Notes under the pieces: generated by a model | Database searches by the model: none | What the model saw: the letters and a program-made list of their open reading frames with translations, nothing else | Told to the model about the DNA's origin: nothing | Shown: positions 35,000 through 54,667 of the stretch, piece after piece | Numbering within the stretch: the first letter of the stretch is position 1 | How the letters are laid out: each line of letters opens with the position of its first letter | Source of the DNA: Methanosarcinales archaeon | Lineage (GTDB): Archaea; Halobacteriota; Syntropharchaeia; Alkanophagales; Methanospirareceae | DNA: 64,000 bases | Direction of reading: 5' to 3' | Assembly: GCA_030611585.1 (NCBI GenBank) | Contig: JAUWPM010000001.1 | Span: 1,715-65,714, forward strand | Made by a program: the position numbers and the translations under genes

Positions 35000-35055
35000 A
35001 AAAAAACGAAAACCTTTTTATATCGAACAGTTTTATATTGCATATCGAAGGTGAA
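35000..35055 (+). promoter_or_regulatory. archaeal BRE/TATA promoter with conserved downstream operator (first of six or more copies)
   Basis: aaaaaacgaaaaCCTTTTTATATCGAACAGttttatattgCATATCGAAGGtg lies directly upstream of ATG 35061. The same architecture occurs at 38421, 39745, 40441, 48225 and 54285. Confidence 0.6.
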
Positions 35056-35060
35056 CAAAA

Positions 35061-35903
35061 ATGGAAAGAAAGAAAATTTTAGGTATAATAGCAATAGTGG
35101 CAATCGCAACGGCAGTGATGTTCGCGGGTTGTATCAACGAAGAAACGCCTGTGTCCACTCCTACGCAGACGGCAACGGTAAGTCCGACCACACCAACGGG
35201 AACTTCTTCACTCATGGTCTATAGCGGCGCGGGCATGAGAAAGCCGATGGATGAGATCGGAACTTTGTTTGAGCAGAAGTACGGCGTTCCCGTGAACTAC
35301 AACTATGCCGGTTCCAATACGCTCTTGAGCCAGATAGAACTGACGAAAAAAGGCGACGTCTACATGCCGGGAGCAACGATGTACATCGAGACAGCGAAAG
35401 AGAAGGGGTTTGTTGATTACGAGCAGAATGTCGCATACCATATACCGGTGATCGCAGTCCCGGAGGGTAATCCGGCGAATATAACCTGTTTGGATGACCT
35501 TACAAAGCCTGGGGTAAAAGTCGTTCTGGGAGATCCGAAAGCAGCTGCATGTGGCAAGATCGCAAAGAAAATACTGGAGAAGAACGGGATTACGGATGCC
35601 GTGGATGCGAATACCATTGCGCGTGCTGCGACAGTAAATGAGCTGGTGGTCTATACGTGCATGGGCACCGCGGACGCATCAATAATATGGCAAGCATCTC
35701 TGATTGGGACTGGGAACGAGACGGATATTATAGAGATACCCAGGGAGCAGAATCTCATAAAAGTGATTCCAATAGGCACGCTAACGTTCTCTGAGAACAA
35801 AGATTATGCAAAGAAATTCGTTGATTTCGTTACCTCTGATGAAGGAAAAGCAATTTACGAGAAACATGGATTTACGGCATATCCAAACGAAAAGTATGAA
35901 TAG
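35061..35903 (+). CDS. modA: molybdate/tungstate ABC transporter substrate-binding protein (ModA-type) with lipobox-like N-terminus
   Basis: Signal peptide ending in FAGC, a Thr/Pro linker, then a ModA-like PBP fold (VYSGAGMRKPMDEIGTLFEQKYG...AACGKIAKKI). Confidence 0.75.
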   Translation: MERKKILGIIAIVAIATAVMFAGCINEETPVSTPTQTATVSPTTPTGTSSLMVYSGAGMRKPMDEIGTLFEQKYGVPVNYNYAGSNTLLSQIELTKKGDVYMPGATMYIETAKEKGFVDYEQNVAYHIPVIAVPEGNPANITCLDDLTKPGVKVVLGDPKAAACGKIAKKILEKNGITDAVDANTIARAATVNELVVYTCMGTADASIIWQASLIGTGNETDIIEIPREQNLIKVIPIGTLTFSENKDYAKKFVDFVTSDEGKAIYEKHGFTAYPNEKYE

Positions 35904-35951
35904 TCTGGTTCACAAGAACAGTACAGTAAGAGAGTAAGGGTAAGGGCGGCG

Positions 35952-36461
35952 ATGGGGGAAGACATAGAGGGAAAGGAGGCTCGGAAGACGTACCAACCAA
36001 TCGGAATAATACACTCAGGATTCCGGGATAAAAAAGACACGCCCATTCAGGGCATTTTCGCAAAGGGCGCAAAGGGTAAGGTGGAAGTGTTCCCTGAATA
36101 CGCTAACGGGCTCAAAGACATCGAGGGTTTCTCGCACCTTATCCTTATTTACCATTTCCATCGCTCTGACGGCTATTCGTTGATTTCAAAGCCGCTTTTA
36201 GAGGACGAACCGCATGGAATCTTCTCAATAAGGCATTTCAAAAGGCCCAACCCCATCGGATTGTCCGTAGTCAAGCTGGAGAGCGTAAAGGGGAATGTTT
36301 TGGAGATCAGCGACGTTGACGTCCTGGACGGTACGCCGCTGCTCGATATAAAACCCTTCGTGCCGCGGTTTGACAACAGACCGGATGCAAAAAGTGGGTG
36401 GCTCAGTAACCCCCATTTAGATCTGGTTAAGGGTGAATCGGGCAAACATAGAAGCGAATAG
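35952..36461 (+). CDS. TsaA/TrmO-family (YaeB-like) SAM-dependent methyltransferase
   Basis: IGIIHSGFRDKKDTPIQG...GLKDIEGFSHLILIYHFH...NPIGLSVVKL...DGTPLLDIKPF is the UPF0066 signature. Confidence 0.75.
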   Translation: MGEDIEGKEARKTYQPIGIIHSGFRDKKDTPIQGIFAKGAKGKVEVFPEYANGLKDIEGFSHLILIYHFHRSDGYSLISKPLLEDEPHGIFSIRHFKRPNPIGLSVVKLESVKGNVLEISDVDVLDGTPLLDIKPFVPRFDNRPDAKSGWLSNPHLDLVKGESGKHRSE

Positions 36462-36479
36462 GAACGAAGGGTCAGCACA

Positions 36480-37280
36480 ATGTTAAAGGAATTGAAAGCG
36501 TCAAAGATCAAGATTGTTACGATACTATCCTGTTTACTGCTCGCCTTTTTTATTTTAGTCCTGATTATTTGCGTGGTTACGCACACCACGCTGCCGGCAC
36601 TGATGACCAGCCTTGCTTCCAAGGAGATACAATTCGCAATAAAATTGAGTTTGACAACCGCTGCCATCTCCACCATTCTATGTATTGCCATCTCAATACC
36701 TGCGGCATACGCGCTTGCTCGATACGAGTTCTTTGGTAAGAGTTTGATTAATACCCTGATGGACATTCCGCTGGCTTTACCGCCGTTGGTCGCTGGCGTG
36801 GGTTTGTTAATACTATTTGGCACGACCTCGTTTGGTAAAGCGCTTGCCGAAACGGGGCTTGTTTTCGTGTTCACACCATTGGGGATAATAATTGCGCAGT
36901 TCTTTGTTAACGTGCCGTTCATGTTCCGGATACTGCGAGGCACTTTTCAGGGCATAAATCCGAGATACGAGCACGTAGCAGAGACGCTTGGGTGCACAGA
37001 GGCACAGGCATTTCGGCGTGTTACACTGCCGATGTCGAAGAATGGTCTCTTAGCGGGCTCTGTTATCACGTGGTCAAAAGGGATAGGCGAGTTTGGAGCC
37101 GCACTGATGGTCGCAGGAGCGACGAGAATGAAGACCGAGACGTTGCCCATTTCATTATACTTGAACATGTCCTGCGGTGAACTCAATTTAGCCATCGCAT
37201 CAGCAACCATTCTGATTGTCATATCACTTGTATCTCTGTTCGTTTTTGAAAGGTACGGGGGTTTTGCCCGTGTATTCTGA
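36480..37280 (+). CDS. modB: molybdate/tungstate ABC transporter permease
   Basis: ABC-2 permease with the EAA-like loop (RVTLPMSKNGLLAGSVITWSKGIGEFGAALMVAG). Six TM helices. Confidence 0.85.
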   Translation: MLKELKASKIKIVTILSCLLLAFFILVLIICVVTHTTLPALMTSLASKEIQFAIKLSLTTAAISTILCIAISIPAAYALARYEFFGKSLINTLMDIPLALPPLVAGVGLLILFGTTSFGKALAETGLVFVFTPLGIIIAQFFVNVPFMFRILRGTFQGINPRYEHVAETLGCTEAQAFRRVTLPMSKNGLLAGSVITWSKGIGEFGAALMVAGATRMKTETLPISLYLNMSCGELNLAIASATILIVISLVSLFVFERYGGFARVF

Positions 37281-37302
37281 GGACAAAGGAGCGGCAAAGA
37301 AA

Positions 37303-38376
37303 ATGATACGGTTAGAGAACATATCAAAGGATCTGGGCGAGTTCTTCTTACGAGACGTAACGCTCGAGATAAACGAAGGCGAGTATTTCGTCATCCTGGG
37401 TCCTACAGGTGCAGGAAAGACAATCCTGCTGGAGACGATAGCGGGTATTTACCACCCGGATAGTGGCAGGATTCTTCTTAACGATAGCGACGTTACTGAG
37501 GTCCCACCACGGGAGCGGAACATTGGCATGGTCTATCAGGATTATATCCTGTTCCCGTTTCTGACGGTAGAGGAAAACATCGGCTTTGGACTGAAGTCGC
37601 GAAAGATAGGAAAAAGCGAGATCAAACGTAAGGTGGATGAACTTGAGAACTTATTGGATATTTCTCATCTGTCGCATCGTTACCCCGTTACGCTCAGTGG
37701 CGGCGAGCAGCAGAAGGTCGCCATTGCACGCGCAATCGCCATTGAACCCCCGATATTGCTTCTGGACGAGCCGTTATCCGCTTTGGACTCCAGAACGCGG
37801 GATTATCTGAGAGGAGAGCTGAAGCGAGTGAAAGACGAATTCGGGATTACCATGGTTCACGTAACGCACGACCAGACGGAGGCGATGGTGCTCGCTGATA
37901 GAATAGCGGTGATGATGCAAGGGCGAATACTGCAGGTAGGTACACCTTACGAGATTTTTAATAAGCCACTAAACAATGATTTAGCCGATTTCGTCGGTGT
38001 TGAGAACATACTGAGCGGTGTCGTGCGCACTAATGAGGATGGCGTTGCGGAGATAGAAGTTGATACTGGAGGGACTATATTCGCCGTTTCTGAGTACCAT
38101 GCAGGGGATGCCGTAAAAGTATTCTTAAGACCCGAGGAGATAATCTTGTCCGGACATGAGGGGGATAGCACAGCCAGAAACGTTGTGAAAGGAAGAATAA
38201 ACGAGCTGCATGACGTGGGCCCTTTAACACGTGTGCAAATGGATACCGGGCGTAGCGAGCTTAGCGAGCTTGTAGTGCTTATTACAAAGCGATCACGTGA
38301 AAGCCTTGGATTGCAGATAGGGGATGAAGTCTACGCAACTTTCAAAGCGACTTCGGCGCACGTAGTGCGAGGATGA
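37303..38376 (+). CDS. modC: molybdate/tungstate ABC transporter ATP-binding protein with C-terminal Mop/TOBE domain
   Basis: Walker A GPTGAGKT, signature LSGGEQQKVAIARA and Walker B LLLDEPLSALD. The C-terminal TOBE domain is ARNVVKGRINE...LGLQIGDEVYATFKATSAHV. Confidence 0.85.
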   Translation: MIRLENISKDLGEFFLRDVTLEINEGEYFVILGPTGAGKTILLETIAGIYHPDSGRILLNDSDVTEVPPRERNIGMVYQDYILFPFLTVEENIGFGLKSRKIGKSEIKRKVDELENLLDISHLSHRYPVTLSGGEQQKVAIARAIAIEPPILLLDEPLSALDSRTRDYLRGELKRVKDEFGITMVHVTHDQTEAMVLADRIAVMMQGRILQVGTPYEIFNKPLNNDLADFVGVENILSGVVRTNEDGVAEIEVDTGGTIFAVSEYHAGDAVKVFLRPEEIILSGHEGDSTARNVVKGRINELHDVGPLTRVQMDTGRSELSELVVLITKRSRESLGLQIGDEVYATFKATSAHVVRG

Positions 38377-38420
38377 GAAGCGGCATGCTTCTATAAAGGT
38401 TCGTTGAGAAACCAACAGTA

Positions 38421-38472
38421 AAAAACCGCAAACCTTTTTATATCGAATGGTCATATATCGCATATCGAAGGT
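38421..38472 (+). promoter_or_regulatory. promoter plus operator copy
   Basis: aaaaaccgcaaaCCTTTTTATATCGAATGGtcatatATCGCATATCGAAGGtggataaaATG. Confidence 0.6.
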
Positions 38473-38478
38473 GGATAA

Positions 38479-39666
<1,188 letters not shown>

Positions 39667-39744
39667 AACTGAATCTTTAGGGGGGAAATAGTTCTCCCTC
39701 TTATTTATTTTTTTTGATTTTTACCAGAATAACAGACCGTTTTG

Positions 39745-39905
39745 AGAAAAAACCGAAAAGCTTTTATAGCGAGTGATATAAATGTGCATATCGCGTAAGC
39801 CATTATTTCGCCTCTGGTTCTGGTTTTGGTCATTACATACGGATATGGAACAGAAGCGGTAGCGTGGGGCGGATGTCGCCCCGCCCCTCGCATTGTTTTT
39901 GGCCG
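39745..39905 (+). promoter_or_regulatory. promoter plus operator followed by a conserved approximately 100-nt region ending in a GC hairpin and T-tract (possible sRNA or leader)
   Basis: accgaaaaGCTTTTATAgcgagtgatataaatgtgCATATCGcg ... gtggggcggatgtcgccccgcccctcgcattgttttt. A paralogous copy lies at 54285-54432 with a compensatory hairpin (ggggcgctgcaccgcccc). Confidence 0.45.
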
Positions 39906-39965
39906 CCCGCTATAACCAACAACAGTTGCAAAACACCGTGGGGCATGCATAGATAGGTGAGCGAA

Positions 39966-40127
39966 ATGGACGAAATAACAAGACTGATAAAGGATCTGAG
40001 AAGACTACTTCAGAATATCCCCGAAGAAGATCGCTATAAAATTCTGGAAGGGGTGGATGTTAATGAGATAAAAGAAGAGTTGGGCTCGTGGTTTATCGCG
40101 GACTATCCATTTTACAAGGGTTCATAG
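39966..40127 (+). CDS. possible small protein (53 aa)
   Basis: ATG preceded by aggtga; MDEITRLIKDLRRLLQNIPEEDRYKILEGVDVNEIKEELGSWFIADYPFYKGS. Not in the supplied ORF track (under 60 aa). Confidence 0.25.
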   Translation: MDEITRLIKDLRRLLQNIPEEDRYKILEGVDVNEIKEELGSWFIADYPFYKGS

Positions 40128-40175
40128 CGGAGAGGCACGATTCGTTCAAAAAAAAGAGAAAGGTCGGTGGTTTTT

Positions 40176-40385
40176 TCAGTCTTTTGAGACCATTACTTCC
40201 GACGCTTTTATCACCGCTTCTACTTTATCGCCCGCTTTGAGACCAAGATCTTCCGCCGCCTCTTTTGTGATCATCGAGGTGATGATTGCGGGCTTGGTGA
40301 TCTCGATTTTTACCGTAGAAGCAACCTCGCCTTTCTCTATTGCCTTTACAACACCTTCAATCCTATTCCTTGCGCTTAATGGCAT
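40176..40385 (-). CDS. mop: Mop/TOBE-domain molybdate- or tungstate-binding protein (molbindin)
   Basis: 69 aa: SARNRIEGVVKAIEKGEVASTVKIEI...DLGLKAGDKVEAVIKASEVMV. This matches the C-terminal TOBE domains of the two ModC/WtpC proteins. Confidence 0.8.
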   Translation of the reverse strand: MPLSARNRIEGVVKAIEKGEVASTVKIEITKPAIITSMITKEAAEDLGLKAGDKVEAVIKASEVMVSKD

Positions 40386-40440
40386 TTTTTTCTATCACCA
40401 ATTGATGATTCGTTTCGTATGTTAAAATGCTTTCGGTAGA

Positions 40441-40495
40441 AAAAAAAAACCGAAAAGCTTTTTATGTCGAATGGTGCAATATTGCATATCAATAG
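40441..40495 (+). promoter_or_regulatory. promoter plus operator copy
   Basis: aaaaaccgaaaaGCTTTTTATGTCGAATGGtgcaatattgCATATCAATAGtg. Confidence 0.6.
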
Positions 40496-40536
40496 TGAAA
40501 ATAAGAATGTAAAAAAATGGGGGAAAATGAGAAAAG

Positions 40537-41778
40537 ATGAAAATTAGAGATTGTATGCTGTGGATGATGGTATGCATTAGCATAGGATTGTTGTTTTTAG
40601 CGCCTCCAGCACTGGTAGCAACGACAGGAGGGGCAGTCGCGATACATGAGAACGATGGCGTTACAGTTTTGAACGCGATGACGGCGGATGGCTTCTTCGA
40701 TGGCTCCGTCACACTTACGGACGGGAATTTCACTTTAACCGCATACAATTCCGGGGTAGATTACGAAGTCAGACAACTTACGCCCCTGGGCGCACTCGAC
40801 GCGGCGGCGACTGCAGGTGCATTTGACTACAACTTCACTGATAAGAAGTTTGATTCGCAGGGTATCCTGATGGTTGACGACATCGGAGAGTACCACTACA
40901 ACAAGATCAACAGTTCGGTAAAGTGGGCGTGGAGCTGCTCAGTAAATGGCAATGTCCTGGACGACTGGAGCAATCCCGGAACCGAAGGCTTGAACGTCTA
41001 CGAGCTGCATGACAATGACGTGGTGTACTACTACTACGGGAACGTCAAGCTGCCTGGTTACGGGCCTGAAGACGCCATAGCGGCAGTCAATATTACCGTG
41101 AATCCCACGCCGGGTGACTGGAATCTCAAGCTCGTTGGCGTAGTCAATGAAACCGTCACAAAGGCGGAGTTTGAGAACGGAGTTGCCTGTGGGCATTATG
41201 CTAACTGGACAAACTCCGAGACCGGTGAGTTCTGGGAAGGTATGCCGCTCTGGTACCTCGTAGGGCGGGTTGACGATGAGATACAGCACGGCTCAGGTGC
41301 ATTCAACGACTCGCTCGCTGCGGAGGGGTACTCGGTAAAAGTAATAGCCGGCGACGGATGGAGCACCAGCCTTGCCAGCGCGGACATCGCACGGAACGAT
41401 GGTTACATCGTTGCAAATAAGCTCAACGGCTCAGCACTTCCGAATCAGACGCCGTCCGGGAAGCCCTGCTGGCCTCTTCACCTCAAAGGCGCTAACGTGA
41501 CTGGCGGACAGCAGGTCGGGAACATCGTTGAGATTGACCTTGTCGGTCTACCCGAACCGCCTGAGGGCTGGGAACTCAAGCTGCTCGGCGACGTTGGCGA
41601 TACGATCACGCAAGCCGAGTTCGAGGATGCTGTTTCATGCCATGGCGTGACGTACACCGACGGTAGCGATATTTGGAGTGGAGTTCCGCTCTGGTATCTC
41701 TGCGGTGCGGTGGACAACCTCGAGACTGGCAGTCACTGGACATTTAACGATACCTCGCAGCCGCAGACTACACGGTAA
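40537..41778 (+). CDS. secreted multi-SUOX-fold surface protein, N-terminal part (signal peptide, beta-rich domain, two SUOX-like modules); continues into 41850-42341 after a frameshift
   Basis: Sec-type signal peptide. Modules match the YedY/sulfite-oxidase Moco-domain pattern: WNLKLVGVVNETVTKAEFE..VACGHY......WEGMPLWYLVGRV.......GYSVKVIAGDGWSTSL........DGYIVANKLNGSALP....WPLHLKGANV. Frame 1 ends ...TFNDTSQPQTTR*, and frame 0 from 41748 reads LAAADYTVKVIAADGYN..., which is the expected continuation. Confidence 0.7.
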   Translation: MKIRDCMLWMMVCISIGLLFLAPPALVATTGGAVAIHENDGVTVLNAMTADGFFDGSVTLTDGNFTLTAYNSGVDYEVRQLTPLGALDAAATAGAFDYNFTDKKFDSQGILMVDDIGEYHYNKINSSVKWAWSCSVNGNVLDDWSNPGTEGLNVYELHDNDVVYYYYGNVKLPGYGPEDAIAAVNITVNPTPGDWNLKLVGVVNETVTKAEFENGVACGHYANWTNSETGEFWEGMPLWYLVGRVDDEIQHGSGAFNDSLAAEGYSVKVIAGDGWSTSLASADIARNDGYIVANKLNGSALPNQTPSGKPCWPLHLKGANVTGGQQVGNIVEIDLVGLPEPPEGWELKLLGDVGDTITQAEFEDAVSCHGVTYTDGSDIWSGVPLWYLCGAVDNLETGSHWTFNDTSQPQTTR

Positions 41779-41849
41779 AAGTAATCGCAGCCGATGGCTA
41801 TAACAGATCATTTGTCAGCAGCGAGATTGCTCGTAACAACGGTTATATC

Positions 41850-42341
41850 GTGGCAAACACGCTGAACGGAGAGCCGCTTGACTATCTATGCCCGCTAAAG
41901 CTTGTGGGTAGCGCCATTACATCTGGTAAGGATAAGGTTGGTAACATCTCTGAGATTGATCTCGTTGAGCTTATCACTCCGCCACCTGATTCCGGCAGCT
42001 ATAACCTGAATTTAACCGGCAAGATAACTGACGTGTTATCTCAAACCGAATTCGAGGCTGGAGTTGCCTGCCATGACGTGACCTGGACAGATGACGACGG
42101 GAATGTGTGGCAAGGTGTTCCGCTCTGGCTCTTCTGCGGCTGGGTGGACGACCGAATCCCACACGGACCCGACGGATTCAACGACAATCAAGCTGCTGCG
42201 GGATACAAGATCATCGTAAAAGCCGGCGACGGCTATGCCAAGGAATTCGCAAGCGCAGACGTCGCTCGGACTAACGACTACATTATCGCCAACACGGTGA
42301 ACGGCACGCCGCTCTCAAAGGATGGTTCGCACCCGCCCTAG
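41850..42341 (+). CDS. SUOX-fold module fragment of the same surface protein; ends at in-frame TAG 42339-42341
   Basis: ...VACHDVTWTDDDGNVWQGVPLWLFCGWVDD...GYKIIVKAGDGYAKEFASADVARTNDYIIANTVNGTPL. The TAG replaces the Trp of the conserved (S/C)WPL(H/R)L motif seen in the sister modules. Confidence 0.65.
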   Translation: MANTLNGEPLDYLCPLKLVGSAITSGKDKVGNISEIDLVELITPPPDSGSYNLNLTGKITDVLSQTEFEAGVACHDVTWTDDDGNVWQGVPLWLFCGWVDDRIPHGPDGFNDNQAAAGYKIIVKAGDGYAKEFASADVARTNDYIIANTVNGTPLSKDGSHPP

Positions 42342-42377
42342 CCACTTAGAATTGTTGGACCGGGCGCGCAGGGTGGC

Positions 42378-43823
42378 ATGAGTGTTGGCAACATCGTGGA
42401 GATCGAATTGACCGAGTTTGGTACGTCAACAGAGGTGCCCTCCGTACACGTCGTCAAGTACGATACGGATGGCACTACCATTCTGAACGAGACCAACGTC
42501 ACTTACCTGTGGATGAAGGCAAACCTCCTGGTCATCGGAGACGGCACAACGCACTACAAGTTCGAGGCTTGTGATTTCACCGAAGGCGATCACTGGGATC
42601 AGGCTGAGACCTACCCGGGTGGCTTCAAGATAGATCGGGTCGTGAAAGGGACCTCGGTGAAAGATCTCTGTGAACTCGTCGGAGGCATGGGCGCCGAGAC
42701 CGAGATCAAGCTGGTTGCCAGTGATGGGTACGAGACCTCGCTGGGCTACGCGAACATCTACACCGATGAACTTACGAGTACGCAGCGGGAACGTCAGGGT
42801 GATGCTTTCCTCGCCTGGTGGGCGGATGATCAAGGCTACGTGCCGGACTATTCCAACGGAATGCGGCTATTCTTTAGCGCAAGTGACGATGACTACGTCT
42901 TCGGCCTGTGGGACATGCACGAGTGCATGGACGAAGATTACTGGCACTATTACTGGAATGGGGGCGTACAGTATCCCTCGTGTGCGGGTCTTTCAGCTAA
43001 GTATATTGATACAATCAAGATATATTCTGCGCCCGAAGCAGACTGGAATCTCACGTTAGAAGGCGCTATCAACGATACCATCAGCAAGTCATACTTTGAG
43101 CAGGCTCTCGCCTGTACCATGGGCGGACACGCAGCGGAATATACAGACAGCAAAGGCAGGATGTGGGAAGGAATGCCGTTATGGCTGCTCTGTGGCTGGG
43201 TGGATGACGAGAACAAGCATTCCGCGGGCGCATACAATGACGCACTCGCCGCGGCAGGGTACAACATTACGATCAGCGCGAGCGATGGCTATAACGTGAC
43301 AATTGACAGTAGAGATACGATCCGAAACAGCAACTACATCGTTGCGAACACGCTGAACGGCACGCACATACCTTCAGACAGTTCAAGCTGGCCACTCAGA
43401 CTCGTCGGAGCTAACGTATCCGGCAGCATGACCGTCAAAGGGATAGCAAAGATTGAACTGGATACTATTCCTACTCCTGCACCAACGCCAACACCAAGAC
43501 CACACGGCGGTGGAGGAGGAGCATCTAAAGATTCCGACGGCGATGGGTACTCAGATATACAAGAACTGCTTGCGGGAACCAACCCGAACGACCAGAATGA
43601 CTATCCAAACAAACCTGTAGCAACGCCAACACCGACTCTAACGTCAGCACCAACCGCAACACCAACACCAGTACCAACGGTACCACCAACAGTAGCACCA
43701 ACAGCAACACCAGTACCAGCAACACCCACACCAACACCGGAAGAACCGGGCTTCGAAGTAGGATTTGCCATTGCCAGCTTATTAGCGATCGCATATCTGG
43801 TGCTAAGAAAGAGGAGGAAGTAG
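42378..43823 (+). CDS. C-terminal part of the same surface protein: SUOX-like modules, Pro/Thr linker, DxDGDGxxD calcium-binding-like motif, PGF-CTERM
   Basis: No signal peptide of its own; same frame as 41850-42341. Contains VHVVKYDTDGTTILNETNVTYLWMKANL...VKDLCELVGGMGAETEIKLVASDGY... and a second module ...LACTMGGHAAEYTDSKGRMWEGMPLWLLCGWVDD.... Ends [25 protein letters not shown]. Confidence 0.7.
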   Translation: MSVGNIVEIELTEFGTSTEVPSVHVVKYDTDGTTILNETNVTYLWMKANLLVIGDGTTHYKFEACDFTEGDHWDQAETYPGGFKIDRVVKGTSVKDLCELVGGMGAETEIKLVASDGYETSLGYANIYTDELTSTQRERQGDAFLAWWADDQGYVPDYSNGMRLFFSASDDDYVFGLWDMHECMDEDYWHYYWNGGVQYPSCAGLSAKYIDTIKIYSAPEADWNLTLEGAINDTISKSYFEQALACTMGGHAAEYTDSKGRMWEGMPLWLLCGWVDDENKHSAGAYNDALAAAGYNITISASDGYNVTIDSRDTIRNSNYIVANTLNGTHIPSDSSSWPLRLVGANVSGSMTVKGIAKIELDTIPTPAPTPTPRPHGGGGGASKDSDGDGYSDIQELLAGTNPNDQNDYPNKPVATPTPTLTSAPTATPTPVPTVPPTVAPTATPVPATPTPTPEEPGFEVGFAIASLLAIAYLVLRKRRK

Positions 43824-43905: not shown

Positions 43906-44898
43906 ATGAATCGTGTGAAGAAGGATAAGCATCAAGAATGGAGAGGTATGCTGCTCATCGGTACCCTTCTCGTGCTTCTCCTCCTCGCTGTACCACCAAC
44001 AACGGCAGCGACAACAGAGGTACATCTAATAAAGTACGCCGTGGATGAATCAATACTGAACGAGACCACGGTGAACTACACGTGGATGGAAGCGAATCTG
44101 CCGGTTTATGGCGATGGCGTAACGCATTACTACCACCAGGGACCTACCTTTAATGAGTGCGATCCGTGGGATCCTGCTGAGGATACAAACGTGGAAAATA
44201 GAGATTACGGTGCTGTGCGAGGGACGGATGTTAAGGATCTGAGCGATCTGGTGGGAGGGATGTCCCTTGGCGATGAGATAAAAATTAAGGCATCTGACGG
44301 CTTCTACAAGAGGTTCAACTACACAAATATCTATGCGCCACAACCAAGGCAGGGGCCGTTGGTTCTGACATGGTGGCATGCGGGAGATGGATACGTGCCC
44401 GACTATTATACTGGAATGCGTCTCATCTTCTTTGCCGACACCAGCACGAATCCATGGGGTTACCATGTATTTGGCAACTGGGACATGCACGAATGTCTCG
44501 CTCCAAAGTACTGGCATAACTATAGTGGAATATGGCCTTCTTCGAGTGGACTGTCTGTGTACCACGTTGATGAACTGGCGATATACAGCACGCTTGATCA
44601 CGCGGAGCTACGTTCAATTAAGGTTTCACCTACCGAAGTAACGCTGAACAGCAGAGATACGCAGCAGTTCACGGCAACCGCATACGACCAATATGGCAAT
44701 GAAATGCCAAACATTGACTTTACATGGGATAGCAGCAATGAAACCGTTGGAACTGTTGACGATACAGGATTGTTCGAGGCAAAAGCAGCAGGAACTACAA
44801 CGGTTACGGCGGCAAACGGAACCGTGAATGGAACGGCAATGGTAACGGTAATTCCCATCCCGATTACACTGGACCCTACATCACGGGCACTACAATAA
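43906..44898 (+). CDS. secreted SUOX-fold plus Big_2 domain protein, frameshifted into the downstream PAP-like ORF
   Basis: Signal peptide, then VHLIKYAVDESILNETTVNYTWMEANLPVYGDGVTHYYHQGP...VKDLSDLVGGMSLGDEIKIKASDGF...GMRLIFFAD (SUOX-like variant). A Big_2 Ig-like domain follows (VTLNSRDTQQFTATAYDQYGNEMP...GTTTVTAANGTVNGTAMVTV). Frame 0 is open from 44760 and reads ...PYITGTTINSTTINWKTENATTGTVKYATEG..., which is an FN3-like purple acid phosphatase N-domain. Confidence 0.65.
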   Translation: MNRVKKDKHQEWRGMLLIGTLLVLLLLAVPPTTAATTEVHLIKYAVDESILNETTVNYTWMEANLPVYGDGVTHYYHQGPTFNECDPWDPAEDTNVENRDYGAVRGTDVKDLSDLVGGMSLGDEIKIKASDGFYKRFNYTNIYAPQPRQGPLVLTWWHAGDGYVPDYYTGMRLIFFADTSTNPWGYHVFGNWDMHECLAPKYWHNYSGIWPSSSGLSVYHVDELAIYSTLDHAELRSIKVSPTEVTLNSRDTQQFTATAYDQYGNEMPNIDFTWDSSNETVGTVDDTGLFEAKAAGTTTVTAANGTVNGTAMVTVIPIPITLDPTSRALQ

Positions 44899-44945
44899 AC
44901 TCGACGACAATCAACTGGAAGACGGAAAATGCAACTACGGGGACG

Positions 44946-46343
44946 GTGAAGTATGCAACAGAAGGGTATTACACAGAACACGGCGACTACGACCATGCCG
45001 TTGAAGATGAGGAAGAGACGCAACTTCACCACCTCATTATTACGAATCTGATGCCGAATACGATATATCATTATCAACTAATAATCGGGAATGAATCCAC
45101 TGGCGACCATTTCTTCAGAACATTTCCGGTTACCAGTTCGTTCACCTTTATTGTGTACGGGGATACGAGAGAGCAAACACCGTTATTCACACAATTGGAG
45201 CGACACAAGCTCGTTGCAGACCGTATCGCAGAAGAGGAAAACATTTCATTCGTAATACACACCGGAGATTTTGTCTGCAATGGAAACGACCTTGACGAAT
45301 GGAACAGATTCTTCGATGCCGGCAGAGCGATGCTCGTAAATACAACTATTTATCCTGTGCTCGGAAATCATGAGGATAATCACACGAACTACTACGATAT
45401 GTTTGGCGTTCCAGAGTGGTATTCGTTCGACTGTGGAAACGCGCACTTTACCGTGCTGGATAGCAACTGGGTACCGCTACAGCAGACGGCATGGTTGCGG
45501 AACGACCTTAATACGAGTGCCGCATGGAAATTCGTGTCGTTCCACCATCCGATCTACAGCTCAGATGAACGACATTGGGGCGGCTGGAAGAATGACGTGT
45601 GGGAGAATATTTTCATAAACAACAGTGTAAATGCGGTGTTCAACGGTCACGTGCACGTTTACGAGCGCTACGAGGAGAATGGCATTCAGTACGTGGTTGT
45701 AGGTTGCGGTGGCGCGCCGTTGTATTCTCTTGCATCTGAGAAGATAGCCGGTTACCAGAACAGCTTTGAACACGCACTCGGATACGCTAAGATTACGATA
45801 GACTCAGATAAAGGAGAAGCGACAACGGAAGTAATAAAAGTCGCGGACGTCTCAGAAGATAACAAGAATGTTACATATATCTACCCACAGAACACGATAT
45901 TTGAGACCGTCGTCCTCTATTTAACCCAGCCTCCGCAAATATTCGATACCGGAGTCCCGGATAATCCCTATCCCTCTATTTCCGGCACACATAAAGGAAT
46001 GATCAAAACGGGTCGGGACATTAACGTGAGCACGATGTATACTTACCCATGCCCGGGAACAGGAGGGCATACAGAATACGTAAAGATCGAGAATGATTCC
46101 TGGAACATAACGGCGAATTGGACGGGGTACCAGGGCGACTGGCAGAACATTACCTTTGACGACTCGTTCACGCTAAAGGCCGGTGAAACGTACAGTTATA
46201 CAATAATAACCGGCTCGTATCCGCAGATAATACACAAGCATAAATTCAATGCAACAGGAGGAACAATAAACTGCACTGAATTCATAGACGCCAACGGAAA
46301 ACACTATCAGAATTGGGTACCCGCTATCAGACTATCCCGTTAG
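44946..46343 (+). CDS. purple-acid-phosphatase-like metallophosphoesterase domain (continuation of 43906-44898)
   Basis: GDTREQ, GDFVCNG, GNHE, VSFHHPIYS and GHVHVYER metallophosphatase motifs. GTG start assigned by the ORF finder; the upstream frame is open. Confidence 0.7.
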   Translation: MKYATEGYYTEHGDYDHAVEDEEETQLHHLIITNLMPNTIYHYQLIIGNESTGDHFFRTFPVTSSFTFIVYGDTREQTPLFTQLERHKLVADRIAEEENISFVIHTGDFVCNGNDLDEWNRFFDAGRAMLVNTTIYPVLGNHEDNHTNYYDMFGVPEWYSFDCGNAHFTVLDSNWVPLQQTAWLRNDLNTSAAWKFVSFHHPIYSSDERHWGGWKNDVWENIFINNSVNAVFNGHVHVYERYEENGIQYVVVGCGGAPLYSLASEKIAGYQNSFEHALGYAKITIDSDKGEATTEVIKVADVSEDNKNVTYIYPQNTIFETVVLYLTQPPQIFDTGVPDNPYPSISGTHKGMIKTGRDINVSTMYTYPCPGTGGHTEYVKIENDSWNITANWTGYQGDWQNITFDDSFTLKAGETYSYTIITGSYPQIIHKHKFNATGGTINCTEFIDANGKHYQNWVPAIRLSR

Positions 46344-46419: not shown

Positions 46420-47841
46420 TCATTCTTTTCGCATATCTCTAAGGTCGTAGCAGAGGTATCCTTCTTCTACCAAATCCTCTTTCCCTTCTAATCTCTTCCC
46501 AATCAACCCGAAATGCTCCATCCGGGATTCATTGTTCCAATTAACCGATTCTGATTTATCTTTCAACTCTGCAAGAATCCTCCGCGCTTCCTCTAATTTC
46601 AAATCACTCCATTTCACCTCAAAGAAAGCTATCTCTTTTGTCTCTTCATTTAATGCCACCAGATCAATCTCCTTCTCTCTGTGCCACCATCTTCCTATCT
46701 TATGAAATCGGAATGGCTTTCTCTCTACCAGGAATTCCATTGCTATCTTTTCAAATGTAAATCCCAAATAGGAATTGAAGTCTCGCTTGAAATCTGACCA
46801 CGCACCTTCTATCTCCCACGTCTCGATCTCAGAGAAGTATCGTGAAACAAATCTGAACCAGAACTCGAAGAAATTATCCTTCATTCTATAAACCCCCCGT
46901 GTCCTTCTCTTATCCAGCACGGAATGCTCCCGCTTCACCAATCCCATATCCCCCAGAATTGATAGATATGCAGCGACATTCTTCGCCTCTAAGAAGGAAT
47001 AATTTGCTATCTCAACGACCTTCGTATATCCCATAGAAATTGCCTCAAGAATCTGGAAATATGTCTCTGGCTCTCTTAATTCCTCCTCAAGTATTAATTT
47101 GGGCTCGCGAAACAAAAAGCTTTCCGGATTAAAGACATTCTCCTTTATTTCCTTCTCCACGTTAATTCCGGAGAAGAATTCTAAATATTTCGGAATACCG
47201 TCACAAACGGCAAAAATCTTGATTAAATCTTCTATCTTCGTCTTTGGAAACCACTCACGCAAATCCCGGAATCTCAAAGGTTGAATAAATATCTGTCCGG
47301 TGCTTCTACCGTACAATGGCGATTTATAGCCCAAAACTCGCTTTTTCATCATGCTAACCGCAGACCCGGAGAGAATGAGCTTTACCTCTTTCTCTGGTAG
47401 AATTTTATCTGCAATCGTCTGAAATTCCGCAATAATATCACTCTTCTTAATTAAGTATGAGAATTCGTCTATGACAACAGTCAGCCCTTTCCTGTCCTCT
47501 TTGACTATAAAATCGAAACATTCAGAGAAGCTATTAAAATTCGGCTTTGGTATCCCAAAGTACTCCCCTATTGCTTTATTAAATTTTGATAGGTTATACT
47601 GCCATTTTCTCTCCTCACAGAGCAGGAATATATTCGCCTTGTCCTTTACAAATTCCTTTAGTAATCTGCTCTTCCCGGTCCTTCTCCTGCCGGAAACGAT
47701 GATAAACTCAAACCCCTTCTCTTTGTATTTCTTATCTAAAAATTCAAGCTCCTTTCTCCTGTCAATAAACTCTTTTCGGTACATGATTATATAATTTCGT
47801 TTCGAATATTTAAATGTAGTCTTTCCGGTAATAAAAAGCAA
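46420..47841 (-). CDS. archaeal ATPase (Arch_ATPase/AAA) with C-terminal DUF234 domain
   Basis: Walker A GRRRTGKSRLL and Walker B VVIDEFSY. C-terminal DUF234-type domain (about 110 aa). Flanked on the right by MITE-like fragments (47935-48135). Confidence 0.8.
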   Translation of the reverse strand: MLFITGKTTFKYSKRNYIIMYRKEFIDRRKELEFLDKKYKEKGFEFIIVSGRRRTGKSRLLKEFVKDKANIFLLCEERKWQYNLSKFNKAIGEYFGIPKPNFNSFSECFDFIVKEDRKGLTVVIDEFSYLIKKSDIIAEFQTIADKILPEKEVKLILSGSAVSMMKKRVLGYKSPLYGRSTGQIFIQPLRFRDLREWFPKTKIEDLIKIFAVCDGIPKYLEFFSGINVEKEIKENVFNPESFLFREPKLILEEELREPETYFQILEAISMGYTKVVEIANYSFLEAKNVAAYLSILGDMGLVKREHSVLDKRRTRGVYRMKDNFFEFWFRFVSRYFSEIETWEIEGAWSDFKRDFNSYLGFTFEKIAMEFLVERKPFRFHKIGRWWHREKEIDLVALNEETKEIAFFEVKWSDLKLEEARRILAELKDKSESVNWNNESRMEHFGLIGKRLEGKEDLVEEGYLCYDLRDMRKE

Positions 47842-48224: not shown

Positions 48225-48272
48225 AACCGAAAACCTTTTATGTCGAACGGTCTATTTTTACATATCAATGCG
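48225..48272 (+). promoter_or_regulatory. promoter plus operator copy heading the SUOX-wtpABC operon
   Basis: aaaccgaaaaCCTTTTATGTCGAACGGtctatttttaCATATCAATGcgg. Confidence 0.6.
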
Positions 48273-49845
48273 GCGTGGTACGGAAAAGATGAAACAAATG
48301 AAACAATATGTGCCACTAGCATTATTGTGTGCCGGTGTTGCGCTGCTGCTCTTAACGCTTCCAGCGCAGGCAGCAGGTACGACAGAAGTGCACGTGGTGA
48401 AATACGCCTCTGATGGCACGACCGTTCTGAACGAGACGACGGTAAACTACATGAGGATGAAGGCGAATCTACCAGTCTACGGGGATGGGACTACGCATTA
48501 CTACCATCAGGGACCGATCTTCGAAGATGCATGGAATGAAGTACACCCCAACGAGACGTGGGATCTTGAAGAGGACAAGTGGAACCCGGAAGAGGACGTC
48601 AATGTACTTGGGGAAGACCTGGGCGCCGTGAAAGGAACGGACGTTAAGGATCTGTGTGATTTGGTCGGAGGAATGTCAGAAGGCGATGAGGTAAAGATTA
48701 AAGCCGTTGACAACTTCTACAAGAGTTTCCCGTACTCGAACGTCTACGAACCCGATCCGCGACAGGGTCCGATGGTCGTGACCTGGTACACCGAAGACGC
48801 CACGGAGAGCGGGCCGATTAGCGGGTACGTGCCGGAGGACTACTATAACGGCATGCGACTCGTATTCCTTGCTGATGCTTCCACCAACCCGTGGGGCAAG
48901 CACGTATTTGGCATCAGCGACATGCGCGCATGCCTCCCTGAGGATTACTGGCATTACTATCAGTACCCGGATTACCCTTCTACGGGCGGATACACTATAA
49001 AGTACATAGATAGAATCCTGATCTACAGCAGTATCGAGCCACCGGAATTGACGTCAATCGCGGTTTCTCCATCCAGCGTGGAGCTGGAAGAAGATGCGAC
49101 AAAACAGTTCAATGCAACCGCATACGACCAGAATGGCGATGAAATGCCAGATATAATCTTTACGTGGACGAGCAGTGATGAAACAGTTGGAACAATTGAC
49201 GAAAATGGATTATTTACCGCATTAGATGCCGGGGAGACCACAATAACAGCAGCGAACGAAACAGTAGAGGGAACGGCAACTGTAACGGTACACGAGGAAG
49301 ACAGCGATGACAATGAAGATGGGGAAGATAGTGGTGCTGGTGACGGAACTTCTCAGTCCAGCCCAGTCCTAACCGTAATTAACGTCTCACCGCCATCAGT
49401 AACGCTGAACGCCAGTAACACGCAGCAGTTCAATGCAACCGCTTACGACCAAACGCAGAACCCGATAGTGGGTGTCGTTTTCAATTGGACGATCGGCAAT
49501 GAAACCGTTGGAACGATCAATAACGCTGGATTCTTCACCGCTATTGCAGCAGGAACGACAACGATAAGAGCTGCGAATGGAACCGTGAACGGAACGGCAA
49601 ATGTAACGGTGCTTGCTCCGACAACAACACCTTCACCAACTGAAACGCTAACGGTAAACGCAACGCCTTTTCCATCTCCTACCGCTCATTCAATTCCGAC
49701 ACACTCGCCATCTGCAACAGTAACAGCAACACCTACGCCCACAGTAACGTCTACGCCAACGCCATCAGTACCAGGATTTGAAGCTTTATTCGCACTCGTA
49801 GGATTGTTGACGGTAGCTTACGTGATTAATAGGAGAAAAAAATAA
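48268..49845 (+). CDS. secreted surface protein: SUOX-fold module, two Big_2 domains, Thr/Pro linker and PGF-CTERM (intact)
   Basis: Signal peptide. VHVVKYASDGTTVLNETTVNYMRMKANLPVYGDGTTHYYHQGP...VKDLCDLVGGMSEGDEVKIKAVDNFY...GMRLVFLAD...KYIDRILIYS. Two Big_2 domains (VSPSSVELEEDATKQFNATAYDQNGDEMP...; VSPPSVTLNASNTQQFNATAYDQTQNPIV...). Ends PGFEALFALVGLLTVAYVINRRKK. Confidence 0.75.
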   Translation: MRRGTEKMKQMKQYVPLALLCAGVALLLLTLPAQAAGTTEVHVVKYASDGTTVLNETTVNYMRMKANLPVYGDGTTHYYHQGPIFEDAWNEVHPNETWDLEEDKWNPEEDVNVLGEDLGAVKGTDVKDLCDLVGGMSEGDEVKIKAVDNFYKSFPYSNVYEPDPRQGPMVVTWYTEDATESGPISGYVPEDYYNGMRLVFLADASTNPWGKHVFGISDMRACLPEDYWHYYQYPDYPSTGGYTIKYIDRILIYSSIEPPELTSIAVSPSSVELEEDATKQFNATAYDQNGDEMPDIIFTWTSSDETVGTIDENGLFTALDAGETTITAANETVEGTATVTVHEEDSDDNEDGEDSGAGDGTSQSSPVLTVINVSPPSVTLNASNTQQFNATAYDQTQNPIVGVVFNWTIGNETVGTINNAGFFTAIAAGTTTIRAANGTVNGTANVTVLAPTTTPSPTETLTVNATPFPSPTAHSIPTHSPSATVTATPTPTVTSTPTPSVPGFEALFALVGLLTVAYVINRRKK

Positions 49846-49846
49846 A

Positions 49847-50671
49847 ATGAACAGAAAAATAGTGTTTGGGATTTCACTGCTTCTGCTCTTAGTATTCGCA
49901 ACGGGTTTTGCTCATGCGGATCCAACGACGGAAGTGCACGTGATAAAGTATGCTGAGAATGAAACAATACTGAACGAAACAACCGTAACGTACCAGTGGC
50001 TGGAGGCGAATCTGCCGGTTCAGGGAGATGGAATAACGCATTATTACCATCAGGGACCGGTATTCGAGGGCGATAAATGGGATCCGAACGAGACGGCGAA
50101 CTATAAGGATAGAGGCGCCGTGAAAGGAACGGATATAAAGGATTTGTGCGATCTCGTGGGAGGGATGTCGCCGGGTGACGAAGTGATGATCCACGCGCCG
50201 GACGGCTACCACGTGGAGTTCGGCTACGCAAACGTCTACGAACCACAGCTTAGACAGGGACCGATGGTTCTGTGCTGGCATTGCAGCGAGGATATAAAAG
50301 AAATCGGCGAGCGACAGGGCGAGGGGTATCCACCAGACTATTACACGGGGATGCGGCTCGTCTTCTTCGCTGACGATTCTACCAATTTAGAGGGTAAACA
50401 CGTCTTCGGCAACTGGGACATGCACGAATGCTTACCCGAGCAGTGCTATCACTTCTATGAGCTCTATCCCTCCACAAACGGGTTTTCAGTGAAGTGGGTG
50501 GATGAGCTAAGGATTTACAGTGGTGGATACACCGGCGAGCACGGCGATCCAGCGAAAGCTATGCCTACGCCCACGCCTGCGTCACGCTCAATACCGGGAT
50601 TTGAGCTCGTATTCGCAATTGCGGGATTGCTGTTAGTTGCTTGTCATACTTTAGAGAGGAAAAGAAGATGA
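49847..50671 (+). CDS. secreted SUOX-fold protein with PGF-CTERM (intact)
   Basis: VHVIKYAENETILNETTVTYQWLEANLPVQGDGITHYYHQGP...IKDLCDLVGGMSPGDEVMIHAPDGY...GMRLVFFAD...KWVDELRIYSG; ends PGFELVFAIAGLLLVACHTLERKRR. The ATG lies 1 nt after the upstream TAA. Confidence 0.75.
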   Translation: MNRKIVFGISLLLLLVFATGFAHADPTTEVHVIKYAENETILNETTVTYQWLEANLPVQGDGITHYYHQGPVFEGDKWDPNETANYKDRGAVKGTDIKDLCDLVGGMSPGDEVMIHAPDGYHVEFGYANVYEPQLRQGPMVLCWHCSEDIKEIGERQGEGYPPDYYTGMRLVFFADDSTNLEGKHVFGNWDMHECLPEQCYHFYELYPSTNGFSVKWVDELRIYSGGYTGEHGDPAKAMPTPTPASRSIPGFELVFAIAGLLLVACHTLERKRR

Positions 50672-51267
50672 AAAAAAGCAAAGTCCTTGGACTTTTACTT
50701 GTTGTTGCGGTGGTCTGTATCGGTGGTATTGCAGCGGTTGCGTATCTGAATCCTTTTGGCACGCCGGAGGAGACCGTTGACTGGAACGTGACGTTGATAG
50801 GGTGCGGAGGCGAGGAGAAAGTGCTAACGTTCGACGAGATAAAAGCGATGCCTTCTTACAAGGGCTACGGCGGGTTCTTCACTACGGTTGGCATAGTAAA
50901 CGGGCCGTATAAATGCAAAGGCGTGCCCTTGAAGGACCTCTGCGCGCTCGTTGGCGGACTCGATGCGTCAAACACTGTCTGGGTATCGGCACCCGATGGG
51001 TATTTAATGACCTTCAGCTACGATCAGGTCAACGGTGATTTCCGCACTTACGATCCTGCAACGTTTAAGGAAGTGCCACACGAGGATTTAACGCTGATCT
51101 TGATGTACGAGCAGGATGACGCACCGCTGTCCGATTACGATGGCAGACCGCTCAGACTCGCGATCGTATCATCGTCGTCGTCAAGCGATGAGTTCATAAC
51201 GGAAGGGCATAGCTGGGTGAAATGGGTGAATAAAATAGAGGTTCGAACACCCGCTGCGAGTGCGTAG
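50668..51267 (+). CDS. small membrane-anchored SUOX-fold (Oxidored_molyb-like) protein
   Basis: N-terminal TM or signal anchor. WNVTLIGCGGEEKVLTFDEIKAMP...CKGVPLKDLCALVGGLDASNTVWVSAPDGY...LTLILMYEQDDAPLSDYDGRPLRLAIVSS...SWVKWVNKIEV aligns along its whole length with the YedY/SUOX Moco domain. Its ATG overlaps the upstream TGA (ATGA). Confidence 0.75.
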   Translation: MKKSKVLGLLLVVAVVCIGGIAAVAYLNPFGTPEETVDWNVTLIGCGGEEKVLTFDEIKAMPSYKGYGGFFTTVGIVNGPYKCKGVPLKDLCALVGGLDASNTVWVSAPDGYLMTFSYDQVNGDFRTYDPATFKEVPHEDLTLILMYEQDDAPLSDYDGRPLRLAIVSSSSSSDEFITEGHSWVKWVNKIEVRTPAASA

Positions 51268-51281
51268 CAGGATGGAGAAAG

Positions 51282-52331
51282 ATGAACGCTAAGCACATTG
51301 TCGTACTAACACTAATCGCTGCGGTGGTTCTGAGTGCCGCGTGCATCTCCCAGGATCAAGGGAAGAGCAAATTGAAGGTCATTTATGCCGGGAGTCTGAT
51401 CCTCCCGTTTGGCGAGCTGGAGCAGGCGTTTGAGAGCGAGCATCCAGACGTGGACGTGCTGGTAGAGGGGCACGGAAGTATCCAGGCGATTCGGCATATA
51501 ACCGACGTGCATGAGGAGTACGACGTGATCGCCGTGGCAGACGATTCCTTAGTACCTGCAATGATGTACCCCGAGTATGCGGACTGGTGTGTGCGGTTCG
51601 CAACGAACCAGATGGTCATCATGTACACCAACAGGAGCAACTACGCGGCTGAGATAAACGACTCGAACTGGTATGAAATCCTCGCACGCCCAGATGTGAT
51701 GTTCGGCTTCTCGAATCCCATGTTCGATGCCTGCGGATACAGAACGCTGATGGTGATCCCGCTCGCGGAATCGTACTACGGCAATCAAACGATCTTTGAC
51801 GTACTGATCGCACGCAATTTCGACCCGCCATTGCCGCTGATTAAGGATAACGGCACGTACACAGTGGTGGTGCCCGAAGTATTCGAGCCGCAGGGAGATA
51901 AAATCGCCGTACGGGGCGGAAGCGTGCAATTAATAGCTCTGCTCGATTACGGCGGTATTGACTACGCCTTCGGATACAAGAGCGTGGCACAGCAGCACGG
52001 ACTGCGGTATTTGGAGCTGCCTGCCGAGATAGATTTGAGTTCGCCGGAGTACTGTGAGACGTACGATAAAGCTAAAGTTACGCTTGGATTTCAACGCTTT
52101 ACGTCCGTGGGTGTTGAGCGTATCGGCCGACCGATCTTCTACGGGATAACCGTCCCTAAGAACGCACCGGATCCTGAGCTGGGACTGGAATTCGTGAACT
52201 TCGTGCTGAGTGAGGAGGGGCAGAGGATTCTCCAGGACAATAATCAGCCTACTATCCCGCCCGAAGTGGACAATTTGGATAAAATACCCGTGGAGCTCAG
52301 ACCCGTGGTTATAAAAGAGATAAAAGAATAG
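51282..52331 (+). CDS. wtpA: WtpA-type tungstate/molybdate ABC transporter substrate-binding protein (lipobox-type N-terminus)
   Basis: Signal peptide with Cys (VLSAACIS). KLKVIYAGSLILPFGELEQAFESEHPDVDV... is paralogous to 38551-39666 ([15 protein letters not shown] motif shared). Confidence 0.85.
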   Translation: MNAKHIVVLTLIAAVVLSAACISQDQGKSKLKVIYAGSLILPFGELEQAFESEHPDVDVLVEGHGSIQAIRHITDVHEEYDVIAVADDSLVPAMMYPEYADWCVRFATNQMVIMYTNRSNYAAEINDSNWYEILARPDVMFGFSNPMFDACGYRTLMVIPLAESYYGNQTIFDVLIARNFDPPLPLIKDNGTYTVVVPEVFEPQGDKIAVRGGSVQLIALLDYGGIDYAFGYKSVAQQHGLRYLELPAEIDLSSPEYCETYDKAKVTLGFQRFTSVGVERIGRPIFYGITVPKNAPDPELGLEFVNFVLSEEGQRILQDNNQPTIPPEVDNLDKIPVELRPVVIKEIKE

Positions 52332-52347
52332 TGAGGAGGGAGGACGG

Positions 52348-53163
52348 ATGAACTCACTTTCAGGATGGCCCGGGACGGAGAAACTAAAGCGGGAGAAGGT
52401 CTACATCCTTTTCCTCTTCTTAGGGCTCGTTCTTGTTGCTTTTGTCTTTATTACAATTGGAAACTTGTATTACAAGCAAGCAGAAGACTTCTCCGGGTTA
52501 ATTGATGCTGCGACTGACCTCGTAGTTCTAAAAGCAATAGCGATAAGCATAACTATGGCACTGGCTTCCACCTTAATCGCGTTCTTATTTGGCGTCCCCT
52601 TAGCGTATTTCCTCGCGAGGAAGGAGTTCATGGGTAAGAGCGTAATAGAAGGTATTGTGGACATTCCCTTGATGATTCCACATGTGGTTGCTGGAATTGC
52701 ATTGTACGGGGTGTTCATGCGGTATGGATTGATCGGTGCGCCGCTTAGAAAATTGGGAATCGTAATTACGGATGCGTATCCCGGAATCGTGGTTGCGATG
52801 CTCTTCATGAGTCTCCCGTATTTGGTAGATACTGCGCGAGAAGGATTTAAAGAGGTTGATCCACGGTTAGAAAACGTTGCTCGCTCATTGGGCGCATCTC
52901 ATTGGAGAACGTTCCGAGAGATAACGTTCCCGCTTGCTTTCCCGTCCATATTGAGCGGCGCGATTCTGAGCTGGGGGCGAGCGATAAGCGAGTTCTCTGC
53001 GGTTCTAATCATCGCATATCACCCGATCTCCGCACCAATTTTAATCTACGAGAAGTTTACTTCGTTTGGACTTCGGGCATCACGACCAATCTCGGTTCTG
53101 CTGATCTCGATCTGTCTGGTTATTTTTATAATGCTGAGGTGGCTTCAGAGGAGAAGGGGATGA
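52348..53163 (+). CDS. wtpB: tungstate/molybdate ABC transporter permease
   Basis: Paralogue of 36480-37280 (LPLAFPSILSGAILSWGRAISEFSAVLIIA). Confidence 0.85.
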   Translation: MNSLSGWPGTEKLKREKVYILFLFLGLVLVAFVFITIGNLYYKQAEDFSGLIDAATDLVVLKAIAISITMALASTLIAFLFGVPLAYFLARKEFMGKSVIEGIVDIPLMIPHVVAGIALYGVFMRYGLIGAPLRKLGIVITDAYPGIVVAMLFMSLPYLVDTAREGFKEVDPRLENVARSLGASHWRTFREITFPLAFPSILSGAILSWGRAISEFSAVLIIAYHPISAPILIYEKFTSFGLRASRPISVLLISICLVIFIMLRWLQRRRG

Positions 53164-54249
53164 ATGATAGAAGTACGAGCTTTATACAAGGACTGGAAAG
53201 AGTTCGCTCTTAAAGACATAAACCTGGAAATTAAAAAAGGCGAGTATTTCGTCATTCTGGGTCCCACAGGTGCGGGAAAGACGTTACTGCTGGAGACGAT
53301 TGCGGGTTTTTATATCCCGGATAGCGGAGAAGTCAGGATTGACGGTCGTGACGTGACGATTATTCCACCCGAGAGGCGGAGGATCGGCTTTATTTATCAG
53401 GATTATTCACTCTTCCCACATTTGAACGTTGAGCAGAACATAGAATTCGGGTTGAAGTCGAGGAAAAAGTCTGCATCGCAGGATACGAACAGGAAGAGAG
53501 TGAAGGAAATAATGGACTGGCTGAGTATATCGCACCTTGCGCATCGCTACCCCGCTACGTTAAGTGGTGGAGAACAGCAGAAGGTTGCAATTGGCAGAGC
53601 GATTGCCATTGAACCTTCAATATTGCTTCTGGACGAGCCGCTATCTGCTTTAGACCGCAGAACGCAAGATCATCTGAGAGAGGAACTGAAGCGTGTGAAA
53701 GAAGAGTTTGGGATTACCATGGTTCACGTAACGCACGACCAGACGGAAGCGTTGGTGCTCGCGGATAGAATAGCGGTGATGATGCAAGGGCGAATAATGC
53801 AGGTGGGTACGCCTCAAGAGATTTTTAATAAGCCACTGAACGAGGAGTTAGCAGATTTTGTTGGCATCGAGAATGTATTACGTGGTGTAGTGCGAATTAA
53901 TGAGAATGGCATTGCGGAGATAGAAGTTGATATGGGGGTTACCATATTCGCCGTTTCGGAGTATCGTGATGGAGCGGTGAAAGTATTCATAAGGCCGGAA
54001 GACATAATTTTGTCAAAAAGCATAGGGGATAGCAGTGCGAGAAACGTTATGAACGTAAGAATAAAGGAGTTGCACGATATGGGCCCTTTAACTCGTGTAA
54101 AACTGGATGGCGAGCGTAGCAAGCATAGCAAGCGTATCGAGCTTGTAGCGCTTATTACGAAACAATCGCGTGAAGAGCTCGGGCTAAAAGAAGGGGACGC
54201 AGTCTACGCAACTTTTAAAGCGACTTCGGTGCACGTAGTGCGAGGATAG
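53164..54249 (+). CDS. wtpC: tungstate/molybdate ABC transporter ATPase with C-terminal Mop/TOBE domain
   Basis: Walker A GPTGAGKT and signature LSGGEQQKVAIGRA. C-terminal TOBE domain ends ...LGLKEGDAVYATFKATSVHVVRG. About 75% identical to the product of 37303-38376. Confidence 0.88.
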   Translation: MIEVRALYKDWKEFALKDINLEIKKGEYFVILGPTGAGKTLLLETIAGFYIPDSGEVRIDGRDVTIIPPERRRIGFIYQDYSLFPHLNVEQNIEFGLKSRKKSASQDTNRKRVKEIMDWLSISHLAHRYPATLSGGEQQKVAIGRAIAIEPSILLLDEPLSALDRRTQDHLREELKRVKEEFGITMVHVTHDQTEALVLADRIAVMMQGRIMQVGTPQEIFNKPLNEELADFVGIENVLRGVVRINENGIAEIEVDMGVTIFAVSEYRDGAVKVFIRPEDIILSKSIGDSSARNVMNVRIKELHDMGPLTRVKLDGERSKHSKRIELVALITKQSREELGLKEGDAVYATFKATSVHVVRG

Positions 54250-54284
54250 TGGACTGATATTAATATGGCGGTGCGAATTTCGAG

Positions 54285-54432
54285 AAAAACAGAAAAGCTT
54301 TTATGCCGAGCGGTGTATAACTACATATCGTGCACGCCATTATTTCGCCTCTGTTTTTACTCCAAAATACAGAAGCATTAGCACGAACGACCATGCGTGG
54401 GGCGCTGCACCGCCCCGCGCTGGTTCTTTGAG
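54285..54432 (+). promoter_or_regulatory. second copy of promoter/operator plus conserved hairpin region
   Basis: acagaaaaGCTTTTATGccgagcggtgtataactaCATATCGtgcacgccattatttcgcctctg...gcgtggggcgctgcaccgccccgcgctggttcttt is paralogous to 39745-39905. Confidence 0.45.
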
Positions 54433-54548
54433 ACCATTACTTCCGACGCTTTTATCATCGCTTCTACTTTATCACCCTCTTTTAGATAAAAATCTTCCGC
54501 CGCCTCTTTTGTGATCATCGAGGTTATGTTATGATTGCGTGCTTGGTG
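54428..54548 (-). pseudogene. truncated mop (molbindin) remnant
   Basis: The reverse strand reads ...ITKEAAEDFYLKEGDKVEAMIKASEVMVSK*, matching the C-terminal half of Mop 40176-40385. The N-terminal half and the start codon are lost. Confidence 0.6.
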
Positions 54549-54667
54549 AATAGACACGTTAGGATTCCTTCGCTTACAGTGATCGGTATAGTGTCATCTC
54601 AATCTGTACCGACTTTCGTGATGAAGCCCTAACCGAAAAGTTTATATAACCCCTTCTTCCTTAGTAG

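Follow-up and report, generated by a model that had tools for sequence, protein, structure and literature searches.

The 64,000-nucleotide window from an ANME-1-type archaeon contains a gene cluster that looks like an undescribed route for the extracellular capture of the trace metals molybdenum and tungsten. The cluster is composed of modA-trmO-modB-ATPase, a wtpA gene with a PGF-CTERM anchor, mop, five surface-protein genes (A to E), and wtpA-wtpB-wtpC (Table 1). It is read here, with about even confidence, as a conserved cell-surface accessory apparatus of the WtpABC tungstate/molybdate importer that operates by capture and relay. Anchored proteins with one to five cofactor-less modules of the sulfite oxidase (SUOX) fold, attached by PGF-CTERM (archaeosortase) in archaea and by SLH in Firmicutes, would reach outward through Pro/Thr-rich linkers and Ig-like spacers. 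Close to the membrane, beside a specialised WtpA paralog, would lie the stand-alone L-type protein and the small SUOX-fold protein with its signal anchor. The modules may bind, and perhaps process, an extracellular Mo/W species (as the oxyanion, thiolated, attached to particles, or bound to a pterin), which would be handed inward to the WtpA variant and then to WtpB and WtpC. No published description of a cluster of surface SUOX-fold and Wtp genes was found.

Table 1. Features of the cluster, with positions in the 64,000-nucleotide window
Feature	Position	Strand	Evidence or content
modA, molybdate-binding protein	35061-35903	+	SBP_bac_11 4.5e-60; TIGR01256 101 bits (cutoff 62.5)
TrmO_N-domain protein within mod operon	35952-36461	+	PF01980 1.3e-40; TIGR00104 128.8 bits (cutoff 93.25)
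modB permease	36480-37280	+	TIGR02141 185.7 bits (cutoff 182.6); TIGR01581 253.8 bits (cutoff 210.3)
ABC ATPase (WtpC/ModC type)	37303-38376	+	ABC_tran; C-terminal TOBE; NF040840 (WtpC) 448.9 bits (cutoff 440)
wtpA1, interrupted	38480-39666	+	NF003196 452 bits (cutoff 355); PGF-CTERM match
mop, single-TOBE molbindin	40176-40385	-	PF03459 1.1e-17; TIGR00638 67.6 bits (cutoff 55)
Gene A, giant surface protein, broken	40537-43823	+	~1095 aa if repaired; signal peptide; N-domain with no family assignment; modules S1 41116-41544, S2 41566-41969, S3 41997-~42400, L 42420-43037, S4 43041-43463; TSP3 repeat; Pro/Thr linker; PGF-CTERM
Gene B, broken	43906-46343	+	Signal peptide; L module 43954-44643; Big_2; purple-acid-phosphatase-like N domain and Metallophos; C-terminal domain
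ATPase_2/DUF234 gene	46420-47841	-	Unrelated insertion
Gene C	48268-49845	+	Signal peptide; L module 48334-49074; two Big_2; Pro/Thr linker; PGF-CTERM
Gene D, stand-alone L-type protein	49847-50671	+	274 aa; signal peptide; C-terminal PGF-CTERM-like anchor
Gene E, small SUOX-fold protein	50668-51267	+	199 aa; N-terminal membrane anchor; predicted extracellular domain
wtpA2, in-cluster WtpA variant	51282-52331	+	NF003196 384.7 bits (cutoff 355)
wtpB permease	52348-53163	+	BPD_transp_1; best match NF040839, 309 bits (under cutoff 340)
wtpC ATPase	53164-54249	+	NF040840 446.7 bits (cutoff 440); TOBE 3.5e-14
Motif copy 1	35016-35046	+	Upstream of modA
Motif copy 2	38436-38466	+	Upstream of wtpA1
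Motif copy 3 and candidate RNA copy 1	39762-39905	+	RNA after motif
Motif copy 4	40460-40490	+	Upstream of gene A
Motif copy 5	48236-48266	+	Ends 1 nt before gene C ATG
Motif copy 6 and candidate RNA copy 2	54299-54440	+	RNA after motif

The original prediction of a Mo/W region describes a real observation, but three interrupted genes had been missed. All four genes of the mod operon were identified by profile matches as predicted, and the ATPase passes the equivalog cutoff for WtpC. The wtpA1 product is a WtpA with a PGF-CTERM anchor, but its gene is not the single ORF proposed; a frameshift separates the signal peptide, which starts at ATG 38480, from the mature domain, which is read in another frame (ORF from 38551). 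The identity of mop was correctly assigned, and the gene lies on the minus strand. The five surface genes are all present, but two of them are not continuous. Gene A consists of three ORFs, with a 1-nt frameshift near 41754 and an in-frame TAG (42339-42341) where the sister modules carry Trp; gene B consists of two, because 4 nt present in the intact ANME-1 GoMg4 ortholog are missing near 44871 and the frame is lost. Orthologs of gene A with the order N-domain, S, S, S, L, S are single ORFs in many genomes, and gene B likewise has a single-ORF ortholog. The surface-gene array is divided by the ATPase_2/DUF234 gene, which is not in the ortholog cluster of GoMg4. The core from gene C to wtpC is intact, and its successive gaps of +1, -4, +14, +16, and 0 nt agree with the predicted coupling of the last three surface genes to wtpABC. 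In the present genome gene A, gene B, and wtpA1, which are the outer components, appear disrupted. That several components are broken in the window counts against a relay.

Synteny was compared among 80 species-level genomes or loci, 73 of them evaluable for WtpA. Counted over these related and not fully independent lineages, the L-type gene is followed by the small-protein gene in 78/80 loci, and WtpA comes directly after the small protein in 70/73. The cluster is found in Methanomicrobiales, Methanosarcinales (including ANME-2 and GoM-Arc1), and ANME-1, and the same gene order appears in one Methanomicrobiales genome and in GoMg4. Two anaerobic Firmicutes, one from Moorellaceae and one from Thermoanaerobacteraceae, have this order with an SLH anchor and with WtpB and WtpC downstream. 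The proposed association with adjoining wtp genes is kept in several methanogen and methanotroph lineages and in two Firmicutes. Gene D can be taken as the hallmark of the system; it has more than 1258 homolog clusters, with ~60% identity between orders.

The wtpA2, wtpB, and wtpC genes are clear homologs of WtpABC (P. furiosus WtpA; A. fulgidus ModABC, PDB 2ONK), and wtpA2 matches A. fulgidus ModA/WtpA (2ONK, chain E) at 6e-94. Asp160 and Glu218 have metal-ligand roles in WtpA (PMC10221389). Unlike canonical WtpA, the in-cluster WtpAs carry Ser in place of the Glu218 equivalent (73/73), with Gln, Tyr, or Phe two residues on, and their genes are preceded by those of the L-type and small SUOX-fold proteins. 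The Asp ligand is kept. Judged by sequence, the in-cluster WtpA is a dedicated and specialised subfamily, and the substrate of wtpA2 may differ from plain tungstate because the variant lacks a canonical metal ligand. A permease adjoining the in-cluster WtpA is absent in 41 of 58 loci, and canonical wtpABC operons lie near the cluster at two loci, which argues that the in-cluster WtpA supplies a shared oxyanion-type channel. The missing metal ligand and the score of WtpB under the NCBIfam cutoff count against a relay.

Nine SUOX-related modules were located in the five surface genes, with one to five per protein, the multiple copies forming tandem arrays. A single module type had been proposed for every surface protein; the modules are present throughout but form three related subfamilies (S, L, and the small protein). 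The small protein gives 37.1 bits against PF00174 and is the only subfamily that passes the Pfam threshold, in agreement with the predicted fold. The S modules are marginal (12-24 bits), PF00174 still being the best match for each, and align with the small family at 95.3% by hhalign (E 2e-8). No Pfam family was matched by the L modules, which are tied to the small family only by profile-profile comparison (hhalign 97.8%, E 9e-13); the L fold is assigned on this basis because the L-type structure model was poor (pLDDT 62). The Big_2, purple-acid-phosphatase-like (Pur_ac_phosph_N/Metallophos), and PGF-CTERM domains were likewise confirmed by profiles, and TSP3 was also found. The Mo-ligand Cys is kept at the canonical hairpin-tip position in no module. 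In the small family the hairpin has no invariant Cys and carries the invariant motif GGFFTTVG. The L family is very highly conserved, with many invariant His, Asp, Glu, and Tyr residues and no invariant Cys. From their sequences the modules would be cofactor-less and are probably not enzymes. The S modules retain a conserved Cys-His dyad; neither this dyad nor the phosphatase-like domain is accounted for by capture and relay, which counts against it.

The best structural matches to the small protein are PruR periplasmic pterin-binding proteins (PDB 7KOM, 7KP2, 7RKB, and 7KOS). PruR is also a small exported SUOX-fold protein with no Mo-coordinating Cys and no catalytic partner domains. It is conceivable, though unlikely, that the modules bind pterins as PruR does: either extracellular molybdopterin or tungstopterin from dead cells, for salvage of cofactor and metal, or a pterin that serves as a signal. 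Phosphate or dinucleotide groups would then be trimmed from the cofactor by the phosphatase-like enzyme before the metal goes to WtpA, and a metallophosphoesterase gene is common in the cluster (37/51 loci). The SUOX fold is basically a pterin-cofactor-binding fold, and conserved DGY and KW may correspond, by motif analogy and not by alignment, to the presumed sites of the pterin-stacking Tyr and Trp of PruR. However, PruR has Pro-Trp at the Cys position, where the small family has Thr-Thr, and its hairpin is truncated, in contrast to the hairpin found here with its invariant motif. PruR is encoded with the c-di-GMP enzyme DcpA in Proteobacteria, with tetrahydromonapterin as ligand and a signalling role; the present cluster contains no DcpA-type gene, its partner is WtpA, and its modules also form tandem arrays on anchored giant proteins. 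Import of whole cofactor is unlikely because the transporter linked to the modules imports oxyanions and is often used in common with canonical WtpA. Extracellular Moco salvage is not known in prokaryotes. PruR, the closest cofactor-less structural analog, binds pterins and not oxyanions, which counts against a relay.

Capture or scavenging was one of two functions originally proposed and is the one favored here. The other, that these are genuine extracellular SUOX-family molybdo- or tungsto-enzymes that catalyze a surface redox reaction and are co-expressed with uptake because they need the metal, is very improbable. Membership in PF00174, the SUOX fold, and the source-database annotation "molybdopterin-dependent oxidoreductase" agree with such enzymes, and the invariant L-family residues would fit an active site. 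True molybdoenzymes are disfavored because the canonical Mo-ligand Cys is missing from the small-family hairpin and from the L family, because no twin-arginine (Tat) signal is visible on reading any of the N-terminal sequences, and because tandem modules are atypical of catalytic Moco domains. Tat is the usual route for exported Moco enzymes. The cluster encodes no electron-transfer partner, whether haem, Fe-S, or other. Unlike chicken sulfite oxidase (1SOX), SorA (2BLF), and YedY/MsrP (1XDQ) of PF00174, the proteins here have multi-copy arrays and no dimerisation or haem domains, and they would be exported by Sec or a signal-anchor rather than by Tat or after cytoplasmic assembly.

The promoter-like motif TTTTATNNCGA-N14-CATATC appears in six exact copies, all on the + strand and all within 35.0-54.3 kb. 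No other copy with two or fewer mismatches is found in the 64 kb (0.21 expected). Seven related MAG loci also carry this motif in front of the orthologous genes. The motif common to these genes supports the proposed regulon, and the co-regulation may respond to Mo/W. The start of gene C is likely leaderless. A further reading, that the genes encode ordinary surface, S-layer, or adhesion proteins located beside mod/wtp without functional meaning, is already strongly disfavored and the least probable of all. Such proteins typically have Big_2, TSP3, PEGA, and PGF-CTERM or SLH elements. Against this reading, the L-small protein-WtpA order recurs in several archaeal lineages and Firmicutes, start and stop codons of neighbouring genes abut or overlap, the in-cluster WtpA forms a subfamily of its own, and the surface genes have the promoter motif in common with modA and wtpA1.

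Capture and relay has a functional analogy in the Isd haem relay of Gram-positive bacteria, in which wall-anchored NEAT domains pass haem to a lipoprotein binding protein and then to an ABC permease. The Isd surface proteins are sortase-anchored, carry one to several copies of the binding module, and are co-regulated by nutrient supply. In both systems anchored multi-module proteins are encoded with a binding protein and an ABC permease/ATPase. The NEAT and SUOX folds and the ligands are unrelated, and the hand-off proposed here would be analogous only in function.

Two of the motif copies precede a candidate RNA, for which no Rfam family was matched. Copy 1 is ~115 nt in length, with a GC-rich hairpin and a run of U at its end. 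The TrmO_N gene occupies the same position in the mod operon at three other loci.

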